Part shown: one piece after another, positions 7,486 to 48,021 of the stretch
How positions within the stretch are numbered: position 1 is the stretch's first letter
Layout: every line of letters starts with the position of its first letter
Program-made: the position numbers and the translations under genes
Notes under the pieces: generated by a model
The model's input: the letters and a program-made list of their open reading frames with translations, nothing else
Databases searched by the model: none
What the model was told of the DNA's origin: nothing
DNA from: Escherichia phage MN04
DNA: 64,000 nucleotides
Sequence record: MT129654.1
Direction: 5' to 3' (one strand)

Positions 7486-7513
7486 TTTACAACCTCGAGA
7501 ATCATGTTATAAT
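7485..7513 (+). promoter_or_regulatory. early promoter of ndd (GTTTAC, 17 nt, TATAAT)
   Basis: Perfect consensus hexamers; CGAGAA/TTCTCG inverted repeat flanks the -10. Confidence 0.6.
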
Positions 7514-9900: not shown

Positions 9901-9919
9901 GGGTTTAGTGCAAAAAAGT

Positions 9920-9948
9920 GTTTACATCTGCTTTAAACATGATACTAT
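9920..9948 (+). promoter_or_regulatory. early promoter cassette, repeat copy 1
   Basis: GTTTAC, 17 nt, TACTAT; contains TGCTTTA (MotA-box-like). Confidence 0.5.
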
Positions 9949-9975
9949 AGACCTATCAAATAAATGAACTGAAAC
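9927..9975 (+). repeat. 49-nt direct repeat, copy 1
   Basis: TCTGCTTTAAACATGATACTATAGACCTATCAAATAAATGAACTGAAAC identical to 10271-10319. Confidence 0.8.
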
Positions 9976-9996
9976 AAACAACCCGGAGATACAAAA

Positions 9997-10224
9997 ATGA
10001 AATTTAAAATCGAAAACGAAATCGTTAAAGCTAAAAATGCTCTGACTGCTAACAAACTGGTTGTAGATGGTATTGAATATGATATCTGTGGAGTTCGTGA
10101 AGAAAAACCCGGTGTTCTGACTTTCTTCACAATGATTTTTAAATTTAAAGGTGACACAGAATTCAAACAGTTTGATTTTGCCCCTGAAGACGAAATCGAA
10201 GTTCGTAATCTGAACATTAAGTAA
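9997..10224 (+). CDS. hypothetical protein (75 aa) flanked by duplicated promoter cassettes
   Basis: ATG after GGAGAT SD; bracketed by the 49-nt repeat at 9927 and 10271. Confidence 0.4.
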   Translation: MKFKIENEIVKAKNALTANKLVVDGIEYDICGVREEKPGVLTFFTMIFKFKGDTEFKQFDFAPEDEIEVRNLNIK

Positions 10225-10263
10225 GTACTTTATTAGAGCTCTTGAAAAAGAGCTCAAAATAAA

Positions 10264-10292
10264 GTTTACTTCTGCTTTAAACATGATACTAT
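10264..10292 (+). promoter_or_regulatory. early promoter cassette, repeat copy 2 (upstream of motA)
   Basis: Near-identical to copy at 9920. Confidence 0.5.
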
Positions 10293-10319
10293 AGACCTAT
10301 CAAATAAATGAACTGAAAC
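10271..10319 (+). repeat. 49-nt direct repeat, copy 2
   Basis: Identical to 9927-9975. Confidence 0.8.
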
Positions 10320-12499: not shown

Positions 12500-12658
12500 A
12501 TGAGTCATAACTTAGAGAATACCGTAACAGGTATGCGTACGCGTGAGCAGGAGTGCTTTGAGGAATTCCTAGGAGCTGATTTTAAGTTCCAGGAACCTAT
12601 TGAAGAAATGTATCAGGAATATGTTAAAAAGAACGAAGAACATGTTTACAATCCATAA
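12500..12658 (+). CDS. hypothetical small protein (52 aa)
   Basis: ATG with AAGGG SD; below track cutoff. Confidence 0.25.
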   Translation: MSHNLENTVTGMRTREQECFEEFLGADFKFQEPIEEMYQEYVKKNEEHVYNP

Positions 12659-28440: not shown

Positions 28441-28459
28441 TCAATTTGAGGAGAATAAA

Positions 28460-28699
28460 ATGAAATTACAACGTGAATCAATTAAAGATTCTGAAGTTAA
28501 AGGCAAATGGTACTTCACAATCCAAGGTAACAATCCGGAAGCTCTGGAAAAAGCCGAACAAGCTTTGTGTGAAATGGGCTGGAAAGATGAGTGTGATGGA
28601 TGTCCTCTTTATGAAGATGGTAGCTCATCTGGTTTCTGGATTCACCATTCCGATGTTGATCAATTTAAAGCTGACTGGAAAGTCGCTAAGAAAGCATGA
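28460..28699 (+). CDS. hypothetical protein (79 aa)
   Basis: ATG after GAGGAGAATAAA SD; own promoter cassette. Confidence 0.4.
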   Translation: MKLQRESIKDSEVKGKWYFTIQGNNPEALEKAEQALCEMGWKDECDGCPLYEDGSSSGFWIHHSDVDQFKADWKVAKKA

Positions 28700-42580: not shown

Positions 42581-42829
42581 ATGAACAAACATCTGAATCA
42601 CGCTCTTGAACTGCAACGCAACGCTTGGAACAACGGTCACGAAAACTACGGCGCATCTATTGATGTTGAAGCCGAAGCACTGGAAATCCTGCGTTATTTC
42701 AAACATCTTAATCCGGCTCAGGCTACTCTGGCTGCTGAATTGGAAGCAAAAGATGAACTGAAATATGCTAAGCCTTTGGCTTCAGCAGCTCGTAAAGCAG
42801 TACGTCATTTTATTATTACCCTGAAGTAA
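42581..42829 (+). CDS. rIII: rIII lysis-inhibition accessory protein
   Basis: 82 aa from ATG 42581, same length as T4 RIII; MNKHLNHALELQRN start; track start 42527 non-ATG. Confidence 0.75.
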   Translation: MNKHLNHALELQRNAWNNGHENYGASIDVEAEALEILRYFKHLNPAQATLAAELEAKDELKYAKPLASAARKAVRHFIITLK

Positions 42830-43183
42830 AATCGAGGAGCCGTCGAACTGTCTGATTAATGATTTGCGAATCATTATAGTTTTAAGACCCCCGGCAGTTT
42901 TACGGTGTACCTCTTGAATGGTATTTTATAGCGGCAAGTGCATGCTACCCCGAGGTGATGGCCAATCGGGAGTACGCCTCAAGGCCTATATATCCATCAG
43001 TATATATCTTATCCTCGAGAAATCGAACCCGGAACCTTTAAGCTAACGGTGTGCAACAGATAAGAGCTATGATGACGAGGTTTACGGTTATCCTGTCGTT
43101 AAATATCTAAAACCTATGTTCCCCTTGAGGGCTTGCGCAGGCAATGCCAATAAGTCCTGCATCCTAATTTAAGAGATTTAAAA

Positions 43184-43345
43184 ATGGCTAAGAAAGAAGT
43201 TAAAGTAGTTGACGGAACCTCTAAACGCGCTGGTTACAAGCGTGCGTCTAACAAGCGTATCAATCAGGTAGTTGATAAGCTTCAAGCTCGTGCTCGTGCA
43301 GTATTGCGTGCAGATGCTGCTTGCTTCGGTAAAGTTATTGCATAA
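43184..43345 (+). CDS. hypothetical small basic protein (53 aa)
   Basis: ATG after AAGAG; Lys/Arg-rich; followed by strong terminator; below track cutoff. Confidence 0.35.
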   Translation: MAKKEVKVVDGTSKRAGYKRASNKRINQVVDKLQARARAVLRADAACFGKVIA

Positions 43346-43350
43346 GTTAT

Positions 43351-43378
43351 GGGACTCTTCGGAGTCCCATTTTTGTTT
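43351..43378 (+). terminator. rho-independent terminator
   Basis: GGGACTC-TTCG-GAGTCCC hairpin + ATTTTTGTTT. Confidence 0.65.
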
Positions 43379-43396
43379 CTAAATCTTTAAAAAAGG

Positions 43397-43460
43397 GTAT
43401 ACATCTCCAGTAGGCATGATACTATAGACATGTACCAAATAATACGAAAACAAACTGGAG
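43397..43460 (+). promoter_or_regulatory. early promoter cassette with SD-covering inverted repeat
   Basis: GTATAC, 17 nt, TACTAT; arms CTCCAGT 43405-43411 and ACTGGAG 43454-43460. Confidence 0.5.
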
Positions 43461-43470
43461 AATAAAATGA
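43431..43470 (+). repeat. 40-nt direct repeat (leader/RBS cassette), copy 1
   Basis: TGTACCAAATAATACGAAAACAAACTGGAGAATAAAATGA identical to 43837-43876. Confidence 0.8.
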
Positions 43471-43799
43471 AAACTGTAAACCTGAATGCATCTGTTAAAG
43501 CTAAATGTTTCAACGGTGAATATCAAGAAACCATGTGGGTCCTGACTGCAGTTGAAGGTGATATCATCGAAGTTGAAACAACTGAAGGTATGGGTACTGA
43601 TTTCACATTTACCATCGAGCTTCACAACTTCTTTACAGGTTGGATTTATGAACTGAAAACTGTAATTACTGGTCGTATTGAAGAAAACAAAATTGGTGAA
43701 TTCTATTACGTTAATGCCCGTACACGTGCTGAACGTCTGATTGCTCAGATGAAAAAAGTTGGTAAACTTGATATGAAAAATTGGAATGTTGTGAAATAA
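43467..43799 (+). CDS. hypothetical protein (110 aa)
   Basis: ATG after CTGGAGAATAAA cassette, copy 1 of 40-nt repeat. Confidence 0.4.
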   Translation: MKTVNLNASVKAKCFNGEYQETMWVLTAVEGDIIEVETTEGMGTDFTFTIELHNFFTGWIYELKTVITGRIEENKIGEFYYVNARTRAERLIAQMKKVGKLDMKNWNVVK

Positions 43800-43802
43800 A
43801 TG

Positions 43803-43842
43803 TTTTACTTTGGTACAGGTTGTGTTATTATAGACCTGTACC
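43803..43842 (+). promoter_or_regulatory. early promoter cassette with stem-loop
   Basis: TTTTAC, 17 nt, TATTAT; GGTACAGGT/ACCTGTACC inverted repeat. Confidence 0.45.
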
Positions 43843-43876
43843 AAATAATACGAAAACAAACTGGAGAATAAAATGA
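43837..43876 (+). repeat. 40-nt direct repeat (leader/RBS cassette), copy 2
   Basis: Identical to 43431-43470. Confidence 0.8.
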
Positions 43877-44238
43877 ACTACATCAACTTCGAACGTAAAT
43901 ATGTTTCTAACGGTATCGCTGGTTCTTCTGAAGTTATTTGTCTGTGGAAACACAACAACGGCACAGTGTGCGAAATCGAACAGTGCATGACTCCTAACTA
44001 CGTTTATATGCGCTTTGAAAATGGTATCACGGTTTCAATCACTATGGAAGGTTCTACTTTTAAAATCGCTTTGGATGATGATTTCCGTCAACGTGATTTA
44101 GGTACCCATCCTTGCTGGAACGGTGATAATCGTAAGCTTCTGGTTAAAACCTGGATTCGTCACATCCTGAGCAACCGTGCTAAACCTGAACACCTGGAAG
44201 CAATCTTTGATGTAGTTCTGAATGAATTTGATATCTAA
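43873..44238 (+). CDS. hypothetical protein (121 aa)
   Basis: ATG after identical 40-nt leader cassette, copy 2. Confidence 0.4.
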   Translation: MNYINFERKYVSNGIAGSSEVICLWKHNNGTVCEIEQCMTPNYVYMRFENGITVSITMEGSTFKIALDDDFRQRDLGTHPCWNGDNRKLLVKTWIRHILSNRAKPEHLEAIFDVVLNEFDI

Positions 44239-44279
44239 TCTTAAAAATGGAGGCTTCTGCCTCCTTTGAGGAAAATATT

Positions 44280-44567
44280 ATGTTTATGACCACTTATTTC
44301 GATACTCGTAAAAATTTCTGTGAAGTTGTCTTCTCTAAGGCAGGTAAAGATGTTCCTGCTGACAAACAGCCTACTCGTGAATCCATTAAGGCCTATGCTG
44401 ATGTGGTTTGTCCAGTAGAATTCCGTACAGTCAATGGTCGTGACACCCTAGCAATCACTAAGCTCAACCGCGATATTAACATCGACCCAAGTGTCGCCCG
44501 CGAAGTCAATACTTCTGACATCTACGGCGGTAATGTTAAATCACATGGATTCCAGATGAGGTTCTAA
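44280..44567 (+). CDS. hypothetical protein (95 aa)
   Basis: ATG after TTTGAGGAAAATATT SD; track start 44247 lies inside an upstream hairpin. Confidence 0.35.
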   Translation: MFMTTYFDTRKNFCEVVFSKAGKDVPADKQPTRESIKAYADVVCPVEFRTVNGRDTLAITKLNRDINIDPSVAREVNTSDIYGGNVKSHGFQMRF

Positions 44568-44761
44568 TGCAACTATTCTTATCACAAACCGTTCAGTTAA
44601 AAGGTGTAGGTATTCCTGGTATGATTTCAAAGGTTTTACCTGCTTTTAAATTGGGTAATGCTACTATTAAAGAAGCCTACACGGTCCTATGGGTCGATGG
44701 CACTGAAGACGTTCGCATGGGTTCTGAATTGTCTGTAATCAAATGTTTGAAGCGAGGATAA
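44567..44761 (+). CDS. hypothetical protein (64 aa)
   Basis: TAATG overlap. Confidence 0.3.
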   Translation: MQLFLSQTVQLKGVGIPGMISKVLPAFKLGNATIKEAYTVLWVDGTEDVRMGSELSVIKCLKRG

Positions 44762-44762
44762 T

Positions 44763-44978
44763 ATGGTCAAGAAACTGATTCAGAAATTGTTAGGTACGGA
44801 AATGGTTGAAGTGACTTATCGTGTGACTGATGTTTCTCCTCATACGGCGGACCATTTAGAACCTTATATCATGACAATTAAAATGCCTAAACATGACGGT
44901 GGTTTATCCATTGAAGACCGACTGCCGGGTTATGGTTATTGGGCTGATGTTGAAATTATAAGTGTCAAAGATGTCTGA
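44763..44978 (+). CDS. hypothetical protein (71 aa)
   Basis: ATG-initiated ORF. Confidence 0.3.
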   Translation: MVKKLIQKLLGTEMVEVTYRVTDVSPHTADHLEPYIMTIKMPKHDGGLSIEDRLPGYGYWADVEIISVKDV

Positions 44979-45429
44979 GTTAGAAATTAGAAGTAACTTT
45001 CCGTGGCCATCATGTGCATTAAGTAACTTTGCTAAATGGCCTTTCGTTATGGATGGTATCCAATTTGGTGGACTTGAAGGATTCCTCCAAGGATGTAAGG
45101 TGAAAAATGTTGAACAACAAAGACGTATATTTAGGATGTCCGGGTTGGACGCGCAAAAAGCTGGACGAGCTTATGCTAGGGCTCAGGACCGTGGCACGTT
45201 GTTCTGGCTTGGAACCCCGTTTTCAAGATATTCCGAAGCGTGGAAAGAGCTTTACGAAAGTGCGTATTTTGAAGCAGCGCTCCAGAACAAAGGATTCCGA
45301 GAAGCTTTACAAGCCACTAAAGGTAAGGTTTTAAAGCATTCAATGGCAAGCCACCTCAAAGAATGTGATACAATACTAACTGAAAAAGAGTTTATCGACA
45401 TCCTAAACAAATTGAGAGATTTATTATGA
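44971..45429 (+). CDS. NADAR / YbiA-like domain protein (putative ADP-ribose or N-glycoside hydrolase)
   Basis: LSNFAKWPFVMDGIQFGGLEGFLQGCK resembles the YbiA/NADAR signature (FSNFAAWPI..DG......E..FQA.K); track start 44962 is GTG. Confidence 0.55.
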   Translation: MSELEIRSNFPWPSCALSNFAKWPFVMDGIQFGGLEGFLQGCKVKNVEQQRRIFRMSGLDAQKAGRAYARAQDRGTLFWLGTPFSRYSEAWKELYESAYFEAALQNKGFREALQATKGKVLKHSMASHLKECDTILTEKEFIDILNKLRDLL

Positions 45430-46064
45430 AACCAGTTATCTTAACAGATATCGATGGAGTATGTTTAAGTTGGCAGTCCGGCTTGCCTTATTTCGCACAG
45501 AAATATAATTTGCCTTTAGAACATATTTTGAATATGATTCAGGACGAACGTTTCTTATCTCCAGGTGAACTGTTTAATTGTGACGACGAATTAGGCGCAC
45601 GTTTAATTGAGAAATATAATCAGTCGGATTTTATTCGTTATCTGTCCCCTTACATGGACGCATTAAAACACATCAACAAGCTCAAAAAAGACTTCGATTT
45701 TGTAGCCGTGACTGCGCTAGGCGACTCAATTGATGCCCTGCTGAATAGACAATTCAATTTGAATGCTTTGTTCCCTGGCGCATTCAAGGAGATTCTGATG
45801 TGTGGTCATTCAGAATCAAAAGAAGACCTGTTCATAAGAGCTAAAAATACGTACGGCAAACGCATTAAGTTTTATGTTGACGATTTGGCTCACCACTGTG
45901 ATGCTGCATCTAATATTCTCATGGATATCCAAGTTTATTGGTTAGCCCGTGGTGAACGCGACTTTAAACCTAATTTAGCCGTAAAGGTTAATTCATGGGA
46001 CGATATCGCAGCAATCGAATCCCTTCGTAATAATGCAGCCGTTGAATGGATTGCACGAGGTTAA
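45426..46064 (+). CDS. HAD-superfamily hydrolase (putative nucleotidase/phosphatase)
   Basis: Motif I ILTDIDGV, motif II VAVTA, C-terminal K...YVDD; ATGA overlap with NADAR stop. Confidence 0.5.
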   Translation: MKPVILTDIDGVCLSWQSGLPYFAQKYNLPLEHILNMIQDERFLSPGELFNCDDELGARLIEKYNQSDFIRYLSPYMDALKHINKLKKDFDFVAVTALGDSIDALLNRQFNLNALFPGAFKEILMCGHSESKEDLFIRAKNTYGKRIKFYVDDLAHHCDAASNILMDIQVYWLARGERDFKPNLAVKVNSWDDIAAIESLRNNAAVEWIARG

Positions 46065-46065
46065 T

Positions 46066-46329
46066 ATGTTTGTTGTTCATACTATTACTGATGGAATCCC
46101 TAAATCCCATGATTATGGAAACTTTAGACAATTCCTTCGATTGAATCCTGTATATTTCCAAGCCAAAGATGAAGATATCTTTATCCAATGTGTTCGGCGT
46201 GGATTTATGTATGTTACTGAATATGATATTAAAGATAAGCGTATTATATCGTATCACAAAACTTTAAATGAGCTTTTAGATGAAGTAGCTTATAATAGAA
46301 GTACACAAACTGTAAGGACGGTAAAATGA
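46066..46329 (+). CDS. hypothetical protein (87 aa)
   Basis: First ATG of track ORF 46033. Confidence 0.35.
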   Translation: MFVVHTITDGIPKSHDYGNFRQFLRLNPVYFQAKDEDIFIQCVRRGFMYVTEYDIKDKRIISYHKTLNELLDEVAYNRSTQTVRTVK

Positions 46330-47849
46330 TTTTAGATATTTTAAACGAAATTGCTTCTATTGATTCTACTAAAGCTAAAGAAGCTATTATTGCTCGTGAA
46401 AAGGATAACGAGCTTCTGAAACGTGTATATCGTATGGCTTATACCCGTCGTTTGAACTATGGTATTAAAAAGTGGCCAGAACCTGGATTTACGTCTCAAT
46501 CCTTTGGTATGATTACACTTGAAGACCTTCTTGATTTCGCTGAGTTCACATTAGCCACCCGTAAGATTACGGGTAATGCTGCTATTGAAGAGCTTGCTCA
46601 AATTATTGCTGATGCTAAGGGTCCTGACGCTGAGGTATTACGTCGCGTAATGATGCGTGACCTTGAATGTGGTGCATCGATTTCTATTGCTAACAAGGTT
46701 TGGAAAGGTTTAATCCCTGAACAACCTCAAATGTTGGCTAGTTCTTATGATGAAGATTTGATTAAGAAAAATATTAAATGGCCTGCGTTCGCCCAATTAA
46801 AAGCTGACGGCGCCCGTTGTTTTGCTGAAGTTCGTAACGATGGCGTAACATTCCTTACTCGTGGTGGTAATGAATACCAAGGGCTTAATCTTTTGGCGGC
46901 TGAATTAATGGCCATGACCGAAGAAGCTCGACAGCGCCATCCTAATGGTGTTATGATTGATGGCGAATTAGTTTACCACACTCCTAAAGTAGAACCTAAA
47001 GCATCTAATGATTTGTTTAGTATGTTTGATGAGGAACTTCCTGAATTAAGTAAAGCCAAGGAATTCCAAACCGTAGCCGATCGTTCTACTTCAAACGGGT
47101 TGGCTAACAAGGCTCTTCAAGGAACTATTACTCCAACCGAAGCAGCAGGTATGGTGTTACAGGCGTGGGATTATGTCCCATTGGATGTCGTATATTCCGA
47201 AGGTAAAATTAAAGGCGATAAGTATGATGTACGCTTTGCAGCCTTAGAACTTATGGTTGCTCATAATGTCGTATTGCATGGTACAACGCGTGTTGAAGCT
47301 ATCGAAAACCAATGGGTTAATAATCTTGACGAAGCTAAAGTCGTTTATAAGAAATATGTCGACCAAGGCCTGGAAGGTATTATCCTTAAGAACATGGACT
47401 CCTACTGGGAAAACCGCCGTTCTAAGAATCTTATCAAGTTCAAAGAAGTAATCGATATCGCTTTAGAAGTGGTAGGTTATTATGAACACTCGAAGGACCC
47501 AAACAAACTTGGTGGTGTCGAGCTAGTATCACGGTGTCGTCGAATTACATCTGACTGTGGTTCAGGCTTTAAAGATACTACCCATAAGAAAGATAAATCA
47601 GGTAAAAAGGTATTGATTCCATTAGAAGACCGTCCTGATTTAGACCGTGAACTTCTTATGAAACAAGCCCGTGAAGGTAAATTGATTGGACGTATTGCTG
47701 ACTGTGAATGTAATGGTTGGGTTCATTCTAAAGGACGTACTGATACTGTAGGTATTTTCCTTCCAATTATTAAAGGTTGGCGTTTCGATAAAACAGAAGC
47801 TGATACATTTGAAGATGTATTTGGTGATTGGTCTCAAACTGGACTATAA
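46326..47849 (+). CDS. 30: ATP-dependent DNA ligase
   Basis: 507 aa; MILDILNEIASIDSTKAKEAII start; adenylation motif AQLKADGARC; EGIILKN; matches T4 ligase. Confidence 0.9.
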   Translation: MILDILNEIASIDSTKAKEAIIAREKDNELLKRVYRMAYTRRLNYGIKKWPEPGFTSQSFGMITLEDLLDFAEFTLATRKITGNAAIEELAQIIADAKGPDAEVLRRVMMRDLECGASISIANKVWKGLIPEQPQMLASSYDEDLIKKNIKWPAFAQLKADGARCFAEVRNDGVTFLTRGGNEYQGLNLLAAELMAMTEEARQRHPNGVMIDGELVYHTPKVEPKASNDLFSMFDEELPELSKAKEFQTVADRSTSNGLANKALQGTITPTEAAGMVLQAWDYVPLDVVYSEGKIKGDKYDVRFAALELMVAHNVVLHGTTRVEAIENQWVNNLDEAKVVYKKYVDQGLEGIILKNMDSYWENRRSKNLIKFKEVIDIALEVVGYYEHSKDPNKLGGVELVSRCRRITSDCGSGFKDTTHKKDKSGKKVLIPLEDRPDLDRELLMKQAREGKLIGRIADCECNGWVHSKGRTDTVGIFLPIIKGWRFDKTEADTFEDVFGDWSQTGL

Positions 47850-47850
47850 T

Positions 47851-48021
47851 ATGAAAGCTTATTTAGAAACAATTGTTGTAACAAACGCAAATAACACTGC
47901 GGCCTCTCAAATCATCCTAGAGTTTGAGGATGAAATAGCTTTTGCCGATTTTAAAGACGTGTTTGACGGCTATGAAAAAGGCCCGACATTCGAAGTATAT
48001 CGTACGTTGCTACCACTTTAA
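47851..48021 (+). CDS. hypothetical protein (56 aa)
   Basis: First ATG after ligase stop; followed by hairpin terminator. Confidence 0.3.
   Translation: MKAYLETIVVTNANNTAASQIILEFEDEIAFADFKDVFDGYEKGPTFEVYRTLLPL

Follow-up and report, generated by a model that had tools for sequence, protein, structure and literature searches.

Why does a T-even phage carry the same leader, letter for letter, in front of two unrelated small genes? The question arises at positions 43387-44978 of a stretch of 64,000 nucleotides (nt) from Escherichia phage MN04 (MT129654.1), which is referred to as the window; its plus strand is the transcribed strand. The original prediction for this segment was a variable block of five small open reading frames (ORFs) without recognisable motifs, driven by duplicated leader cassettes and lying where T4 has its 30.x genes. 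In our judgement the block is very probably the orthologue of the early accessory gene cluster of T4, with cassettes of the promoter-early stem-loop (PeSL) type that serve expression as well as recombination, and with proteins that act as host-interaction factors.

Across the 3.3 kb around the block, identity is 99.3% with phage NC-G and 98.9% with Escherichia phage JS98, a member of the genus Dhakavirus (Straboviridae, Tevenvirinae), and the segment matches 737 T-even records in all. By this similarity the window comes from a JS98-like Dhakavirus. The annotated gene order of JS98 is 31.2, 31.1, 31, rIII, 30.9, 30.8, 30.7, 30.6, 30.5, 30.4, 30.3, 30.2, 30.1 and 30 (DNA ligase), and T4 has the identical gene set and order across its 30.x region. 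The five ORFs of the block are orthologues of T4 30.8, 30.7, 30.6, 30.5 and 30.4, collinear with T4 and 45-93% identical to their counterparts at the protein level. JS98 annotation and T4 synteny thus bear out the predicted 30.x position, and the two ORFs behind the cassettes are indeed followed by three further small ORFs of 95, 64 and 71 amino acids (aa) and then by a NADAR gene (family Phage_30_3). The supposed lack of motifs was not borne out. Besides being T4 orthologues, gp30.8 and gp30.7 match their own Pfam families, PF06019 (163.4 bits, gathering cut-off 25, profile positions 1-124 of 124) and PF06919 (175.2 bits, gathering cut-off 27, profile positions 1-118 of 118), and each of the nine products of 30.9 to 30.1 matches a PHROG family of unknown function (NCBIfam: none of the nine). 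The products of 30.6, 30.5 and 30.4 have nearly the same lengths as in T4, and their position between 30.7 and 30.3 is kept.

The repeat itself is as exact as predicted: 40 nt are identical at 43431-43470 and 43837-43876, with a copy-to-copy spacing of 406 nt. These are the sole two matches in the window, even allowing up to three mismatches, and no such repeat is expected by chance (0 in 100 shuffles). Similarity reaches 55 nt at 95% identity (43417-43471 and 43823-43877) and takes in the -10 box, an A-rich 5' untranslated region (5'UTR) of ~35 nt downstream of it, a GGAG Shine-Dalgarno sequence (43457 and 43863) and, six nt further on, the ATG (43467 and 43873), in agreement with the idea of a promoter, leader and ribosome-binding cassette. 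The copies end in the start codons of the 110-aa ORF (43467-43799) and the 121-aa ORF (43873-44238), which are unrelated, as had been claimed: BLASTP found no similarity between the two proteins. The leader is predicted to be essentially unstructured (-0.7 kcal/mol, z = +1.1).

The cassette precedes both 30.8 and 30.7 in eight of the eight Dhakavirus-type loci that we read directly (window, JS98, IME08, VR5, IME540, fDHCT2, QL01 and PSD2002), and both repeat copies occur in all Dhakavirus-type records (~40, RefSeq duplicates included) among 60 matches listed. In the 30.9-30.1 cluster of T4, gene content, order and strand agree with the window, and the paired proteins are 43-93% identical in aa; promoter-like hexamers likewise precede 30.8 and 30.7, 30.9 is followed by a terminator and 30.7 by a hairpin. 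The T4 cluster differs in the leaders. In T4, as in the Gaprivervirus VR7, those of 30.8 and 30.7 share the ribosome-binding site only, with the last ~15-20 nt of the leader, GGAGAATAAAATGA, common to both genes, whereas identity from the -10 box to the ATG is specific to Dhakavirus. Because the T4 and VR7 leaders share no more than the ribosome-binding site, the long identity arose in the Dhakavirus lineage. The leader end GGAGAATAAAATGA also precedes another early gene at 28450, and the 16-nt ribosome-binding region of 30.8, GGAGAATAAAATGAAA, recurs exactly at 28450-28465 before that gene.

Each copy overlaps a predicted T4-type early promoter (Table 1). P30.8 lies downstream of an AT-rich tract, occupies the position of the promoter-like hexamers GTTTAC-N17-TAGTAT upstream of T4 30.8, and is kept in Dhakavirus with GTGTAC as the -35 element in some members. 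P30.7 was called by a generic promoter scan and is also kept in T4 and VR7; a 76-nt stretch around it has matches in 819 phage records. The stem-loop that encloses the P30.7 -10 box is unusually stable (-18.8 kcal/mol, z = -4.7; none of 200 shuffles as good), and its arms, GGTACAGG and CCTGTACC, occur in T4 and VR7 too. The dyad at the P30.8 -10 box is weak and not significant (z = -1.3). Upstream of P30.8, the hairpin of the predicted terminator after 30.9 (43349-43370) folds with -16.2 kcal/mol (z = -5.1) and is kept in T4, in VR7 and at every Dhakavirus locus that we read. In PSD2002 the stem is the same and the loop is inverted (GGGACTC-CGAA-GAGTCCC), which looks like a hairpin-loop inversion. 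The hairpin after 30.7 (-15.0 kcal/mol, z = -3.8) was called as a terminator on the minus strand only; in T4 and VR7 its stem sequence differs and a hairpin is retained at the same place. It is probably a weak attenuator or a stabiliser of the mRNA end. No Rfam families or tRNAs were found in 42700-44400, and 42800-47900 is free of MotA-box and late-promoter motifs.

The original prediction missed that this arrangement has been described before. PeSLs of T4-type phages (Arbiol et al. 2010, PMC2839356; Comeau et al. 2014, PMC4122927) consist of an AT-rich tract, an early promoter, a stem-loop, a Shine-Dalgarno sequence and an ATG, the stem-loop lying mostly between the promoter boxes or over the -10 box and sometimes upstream. 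They concentrate among non-essential variable genes, and recombination between them deletes, inserts or swaps the enclosed ORFs; in RB49 and phi1, DNA circles were shown experimentally to have junctions between the -10 box and the ATG (PMC2839356). The window cassettes share this layout. P30.7 fits the promoter consensus of T4/PST PeSLs, TTTACW-N17-TAYWAT (PMC2839356, PMC4122927), and the P30.8 -10 box fits it as well, with a -35 element that matches GTTTAC at five of six positions. The stem-loop is the hairpin around the -10 box at P30.7 and the terminator hairpin upstream at P30.8, both cassettes are closed by a Shine-Dalgarno sequence and a start codon, and the setting is the same, with a gene replacement in IME08, a deletion in JS10, AnYang and CUA3, and T4 orthologues that are non-essential. 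The 30.8 and 30.7 cassettes therefore fit PeSL-type elements with predicted promoter and terminator activity. They differ from the original PeSLs of RB49 and phi1, which have near-perfect sigma-70 consensus promoters and stems with G/C tracts (later examples came from T4/PST and nt-1/KVP40), in that the neighbouring copies are unusually alike, 40 nt being perfect. Arbiol et al. mention JS98 once and JS10 not at all, and do not discuss the 30.8/30.7 locus (PMC2839356).

Across the window, an inverted repeat flanks the -10 box in 6 of 17 candidate early promoters (permutation p = 0.0002), taking as the criterion perfect complementarity of at least 6 bp between the spacer and the bases just past the -10 box; in mismatched promoter pairs the criterion was reached in 6%. 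Early promoters with such a repeat start on the plus strand at 7486, 12645, 28114, 28405, 37688, 40129 and 43804, the one at 12645 having been noticed by eye, outside the 17-candidate set. We considered whether hairpins that span the -10 box might mark a new promoter class and rejected this, since the PeSLs of Arbiol et al. (2010, PMC2839356) already include them. Cassettes also come as a near-identical pair at 9911-9975 and 10255-10319 (65 nt, 94%, 344 nt apart), flanking an ORF of 75 aa (9997-10224) in the same architecture as at 30.8. Since -10 hairpins are enriched and a second cassette pair lies at 9911-10319, the 30.8/30.7 cassettes are a local example of a pattern found across the genome and known from earlier work. 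Early promoters with CATGATACTATAG(A/T)CCTATCAA after the spacer form a further family, with members at 9921, 10265, 27034, 28114 and 43417 of the window and at 1815-1845 of locus L002.

Comparison with relatives suggests a second role for the cassettes. The 30.8 genes fall into two allele classes with ~40% protein identity, one grouping with Tequatrovirus and the other with Gaprivervirus and Mosigvirus, and both are found within Dhakavirus. In IME08, the 30.8 ORF is 92% identical in nt to Gaprivervirus VR7 and 50% to the window; the promoter and leader ahead of it are 97-98%, the second repeat 100% and 30.7 97% identical to the window. Homology to the window stops just past the ATG (43473) and resumes at 43804, in the -35 element of P30.7. 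As judged from these alignments, IME08 30.8 is an allele of the Gaprivervirus type whose breakpoints fall within the cassettes. JS10, AnYang and CUA3 lack both 30.8 and 30.7 and have the same deletion junction; in JS10 the deletion corresponds to 43430-44266, from just past the P30.8 -10 box to just past the 30.7 hairpin, and P30.8 leads into 30.6 through a short, different leader. Genes are also gained. VR5 and QL01 carry an extra gene of 96-98 aa in the 30.6-30.5 interval (loci L005, 1779-2069, and L009, 1676-1972), whose product ends in FQMKY, resembling the FQMRF C-terminus of gp30.6, and fDHCT2 and PSD2002 carry a second, diverged tandem 30.4 paralogue (loci L007, 2186-2398, and L010, 2131-2343). 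With an extra 30.6-like gene and a second 30.4 paralogue, the 30.x block grows by tandem duplication as well. The variability that had been predicted is thus real as allele swap, deletion and paralogue gain within the genus, and does not extend to the gene order, which is conserved from T4 to Dhakavirus.

Table 1. Features of the 30.9 to 30 region of the window (promoters, terminator and other hairpins are predictions; identities are to T4 proteins unless stated otherwise)
Feature	Position	Strand	Details
30.9 orthologue, 53 aa, Lys/Arg-rich	43184-43345	+	JS98 annotation; phrog_1427, E = 6.5e-26; 62% aa to gp30.9
Intrinsic terminator hairpin after 30.9	43349-43376	+	GGGACTC-TTCG-GAGTCCC and T-run; terminator scan
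Early promoter P30.8	43397-43425	+	-35-like GTATAC 43397-43402, 17-nt spacer, -10 TACTAT 43420-43425
Repeat copy 1	43417-43471	+	-10 box, expected start ~43432, A-rich 5'UTR, GGAG 43457-43460, ATGA
30.8 orthologue, 110 aa, T4-type allele	43467-43799	+	PF06019 Phage_30_8, E = 2.8e-48; 78% aa
Early promoter P30.7	43803-43831	+	-35 TTTTAC/TTTACT, 16-17-nt spacer, -10 TATTAT 43826-43831
12-bp stem-loop at P30.7	43809-43845	+	TTGGTACAGG...CCTGTACCAA; P30.7 -10 box in loop
Repeat copy 2	43823-43877	+	-10 box, expected transcription start, 5'UTR, GGAG 43863-43866, ATGA
30.7 orthologue, 121 aa	43873-44238	+	PF06919 Phage_T4_Gp30_7, E = 4.7e-52; 93% aa, 86% nt
GC hairpin after 30.7	44240-44270, core 44249-44264	+	Short U-run, then GAGG Shine-Dalgarno of 30.6
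30.6 orthologue, 95 aa	44280-44567	+	phrog_2153, E = 8e-49; 84% aa
30.5 orthologue, 64 aa	44567-44761	+	phrog_1690, E = 5.7e-29; 66% aa to gp30.5
30.4 orthologue, 71 aa	44763-44978	+	phrog_2042, E = 6.3e-35; 45% aa
30.3/adfN orthologue, 152 aa, NADAR	44971-45429	+	Phage_30_3 PF08010, E = 2.1e-65; 85% aa to AdfN
Genes 30.2, 30.1 and 30 (DNA ligase)	45426-47849	+	ATGA or near-abutting junctions continue the chain

Taken together, we propose that 30.8 and 30.7 would each be transcribed from their own T4-type early (sigma-70) promoter, with the terminator after 30.9 insulating the block against upstream transcription. As the repeat covers the segment from the -10 box to the ATG, the two mRNAs should share their leader and be translated equally right after infection. 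The cassettes and their stem-loops would at the same time act as portable homology, through which phage recombination may swap or remove the enclosed genes and leave the neighbours undisturbed. The proteins of the block would be small, dispensable, early host-interaction factors, in line with the anti-defence activity of the neighbour AdfN and the binding of polyphosphate kinase (Ppk) by gp30.5.

Several points weigh against this proposal. The right end of the JS10-type deletion lies outside the repeat copies, and the junction has 16 nt of a different leader, which is of the generic CATGATACTATAG(A/T)CCTATCAA promoter-family type and not of the 30.7 type. With the right end past the 30.7 hairpin and another leader at the junction, we rejected a simple repeat-to-repeat excision for JS10. 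The simple copy-to-copy product, loss of 30.8 only, was not seen among the 60 listed matches, in which no systematic search for it was made; that no genome was seen with 30.8 alone removed is a weak hint that gp30.8 is useful in nature. Breakpoints in the cassettes could also reflect which recombinants survive and not favoured sites of recombination. The -35 element of P30.8, GTATAC, matches GTTTAC at five of six positions, and the generic sigma-70 scan missed this promoter; the transcription starts of 30.8 and 30.7, which we place within the cassettes, are predictions from the base sequence. The structural checks suggested with the original prediction succeeded in part. They gave a confident AlphaFold2 (AF2) model of gp30.7, with a mean predicted local distance difference test score (pLDDT) of 85.7 and a predicted seven-stranded beta-sheet packed on three C-terminal helices; a fold search with it gave no match beyond its own family and no relative of known function. 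The model of gp30.8, built on three usable sequences, was poor (pLDDT 49).

A further reading, which we think doubtful, is that in Dhakavirus the identity of the cassettes is actively maintained, by gene conversion or selection, as a plug-in slot for 30.8. The diverged alleles (~40% identity; T4-type versus Gaprivervirus/Mosigvirus-type) would then cross T-even genera, and gp30.8 and gp30.7 would be new anti-defence or host-takeover proteins, with the allele class matching host factors.

The identical leaders may instead be kept for expression only, giving 30.8 and 30.7 matched early translation, with no special part in recombination and with breakpoints that are simply viable intergenic junctions. 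An unstructured, A-rich leader with a GGAG Shine-Dalgarno sequence suits this explanation, as do the leader end shared by 30.8 and 30.7 of T4 and VR7 and the gene at 28450, and the fact that no 30.8-only deletion was seen among the matches listed. Outside Dhakavirus, however, the leaders diverge upstream of the ribosome-binding site, and expression therefore does not need leader identity; moreover, the IME08 swap and the JS10 deletion each end within a cassette, and the circles of RB49 and phi1 arose experimentally by crossovers between the -10 box and the ATG (PMC2839356). We judge this explanation unlikely.

Post-transcriptional control is a much less probable role for the shared leader, as a target of RegB or a repressor site through which 30.8 and 30.7 would be shut off together. 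RegB is an endoribonuclease that cuts GGAG in early T4 ribosome-binding sites, and both copies carry this motif; GGAG requires 4 nt, though, and not an identity of 40-55 nt, the leader has no stable fold and no Rfam match in 42700-44400, and such control would complement the proposed dual role of the cassettes more than compete with it. An origin of the repeat in misassembly or in a very recent duplication private to this phage, with the small ORFs as chance reading frames, has nothing but the small size of the ORFs in its favour and is already refuted by the presence of both copies in all Dhakavirus-type records listed and in eight of the eight loci read, by ORF family matches down to E = 1e-65 and by the detection of the T4 proteins in proteomics (PMC9697503 supplement). 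An antisense ORF of 145 aa on the minus strand (43422-43859) has no family, which also speaks against this explanation, and was rejected as a gene.

Returning to the reading that the cassettes serve both expression and recombination, their reach within the block is smaller than the original prediction had it: two of the five ORFs, 30.8 and 30.7, lie behind a cassette, and 30.6, 30.5 and 30.4 have none. From 30.6 on, genes overlap or abut in a chain that runs into the ligase gene, with TAATG (30.5 start over 30.6 stop), ATGA, an 8-nt overlap (30.4 end and 30.3 start) and 1-nt gaps at the junctions. We infer that transcripts from P30.8 and P30.7 read through into 30.6, 30.5 and 30.4, whose translation would be linked to that of adfN, 30.2, 30.1 and the ligase gene. 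For 30.6, a 106-aa version starting from the ATG at 44247 was discarded as an over-extension, because the PHROG profile begins at residue 12 of it; JS98 and T4 annotation also set the start at 44280.

The evidence for early expression, dispensability and the functions of 30.5 and 30.3 comes from T4. There, 30.4 to 30.8 are classed as early at the level of both RNA and protein (PMC9697503 supplement), and 30.1 to 30.9 were all non-essential on E. coli K-12 by transposon sequencing (bioRxiv 10.1101/2025.11.20.689424 supplement). The product of T4 30.3, AdfN, is a NADAR enzyme and acts against DarTG1 (PMC11257639); that of T4 30.5 binds the Ppk of the host and is among the triggers of the immune sensor bNACHT11 (bioRxiv 10.1101/2024.12.17.629029). 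These two genes lend substance to the suggestion that the block stands in a host-takeover or anti-defence context. Behind the same predicted promoters, the window has a full-length orthologue of AdfN and, with 66% identity, one of gp30.5, which by T4 orthology only would be a Ppk binder and bNACHT11 trigger. The functions were shown for the T4 proteins only and do not bear directly on 30.8, 30.7, 30.6 and 30.4; a search for literature on these four found nothing, and searches by accession number or by UniProt and Pfam name returned noise or nothing. From operon context and analogy, we suggest with low confidence that these four are small proteins that act early by binding or inhibiting proteins of the host or of defence systems; the proposal leans on neighbourhood and analogy because no fold relative with a known function was found for gp30.7 and the gp30.8 model is poor. 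Overall, the ORFs are conserved, their T4 orthologues are expressed, and they match T4 30.x proteins of which most have no known function, which tips the original prediction neither way. A partial parallel is found in the internal-protein (IP) loci of T-even phages, where, as far as Repoila et al. 1994 is relayed in PMC2839356 and PMC4122927, T4-type early promoters and AT-rich stem-loops flank small exchangeable host-interaction genes. The IP loci differ in lying elsewhere and in that their products enter the head during packaging and are injected, of which there is no sign for gp30.8 and gp30.7.

Homologues of gp30.8 were found in 1039 phage records. An exhaustive search of 1.84 billion representative proteins retrieved 19 clusters, all of small phage-type proteins bar one 866-aa repetitive protein, which we judged a spurious, repeat-summed match. 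As there are only 19 clusters among so many representatives, the gp30.8 family is, on this sequence search, confined to T4-like phages. In the record of phage ESCO10 (OM386655.1) the 30.8 orthologue is labelled 'putative ABC transporter ATP-binding protein' and its neighbours are also oddly named, which looks like an annotation error. The 30.7 gene is the best conserved DNA stretch relative to T4 (86%), and gp30.7 (93% aa) is more conserved than gp31 (80%) and DNA ligase (62%), both of which are essential. This degree of conservation points to strong constraint or to recent exchange between genera.

The 30.9 gene lies directly upstream of the five-ORF block. In the gap between rIII and 30.9 (42830-43183, 354 nt), neither a convincing ORF nor a tRNA nor a match to Rfam was found; the gap aligns poorly to T4 (55%, many gaps) and contains an early-promoter-like site at 42899. 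Downstream, the NADAR half of the predicted NADAR/HAD pair is firm and the HAD half is not. The C-terminus of the AdfN orthologue is intact (152 aa, as in T4), in contrast to that of the RB69 version, which is truncated by 15 residues and inactive (PMC11257639); by sequence it has no relative in the Protein Data Bank (PDB). The 30.2 product (212 aa versus 278 aa in T4; 54% aa identity) gave weak HAD-type signals, NT5C at E = 0.1, below the cut-off, and the 5'(3')-deoxyribonucleotidase 2jao at E = 0.19, beside an N-terminal DIDGV motif read from its sequence. The 30.1 product is 43% identical to that of T4.

This locus adds one more ordinary case to a known kind, with no new element type or mechanism. 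What it offers is a clean example from nature of small early genes being exchanged between T-even phages at promoter/leader cassettes, in which one inter-genus allele swap can be located, with one breakpoint at the leader and ATG and the other within the next promoter. Because they are expressed early in T4, can be dispensed with, are conserved widely and uncharacterised, and share an operon with AdfN and the Ppk-binding gp30.5, gp30.8 and gp30.7 are candidates for anti-defence or host-factor screens.

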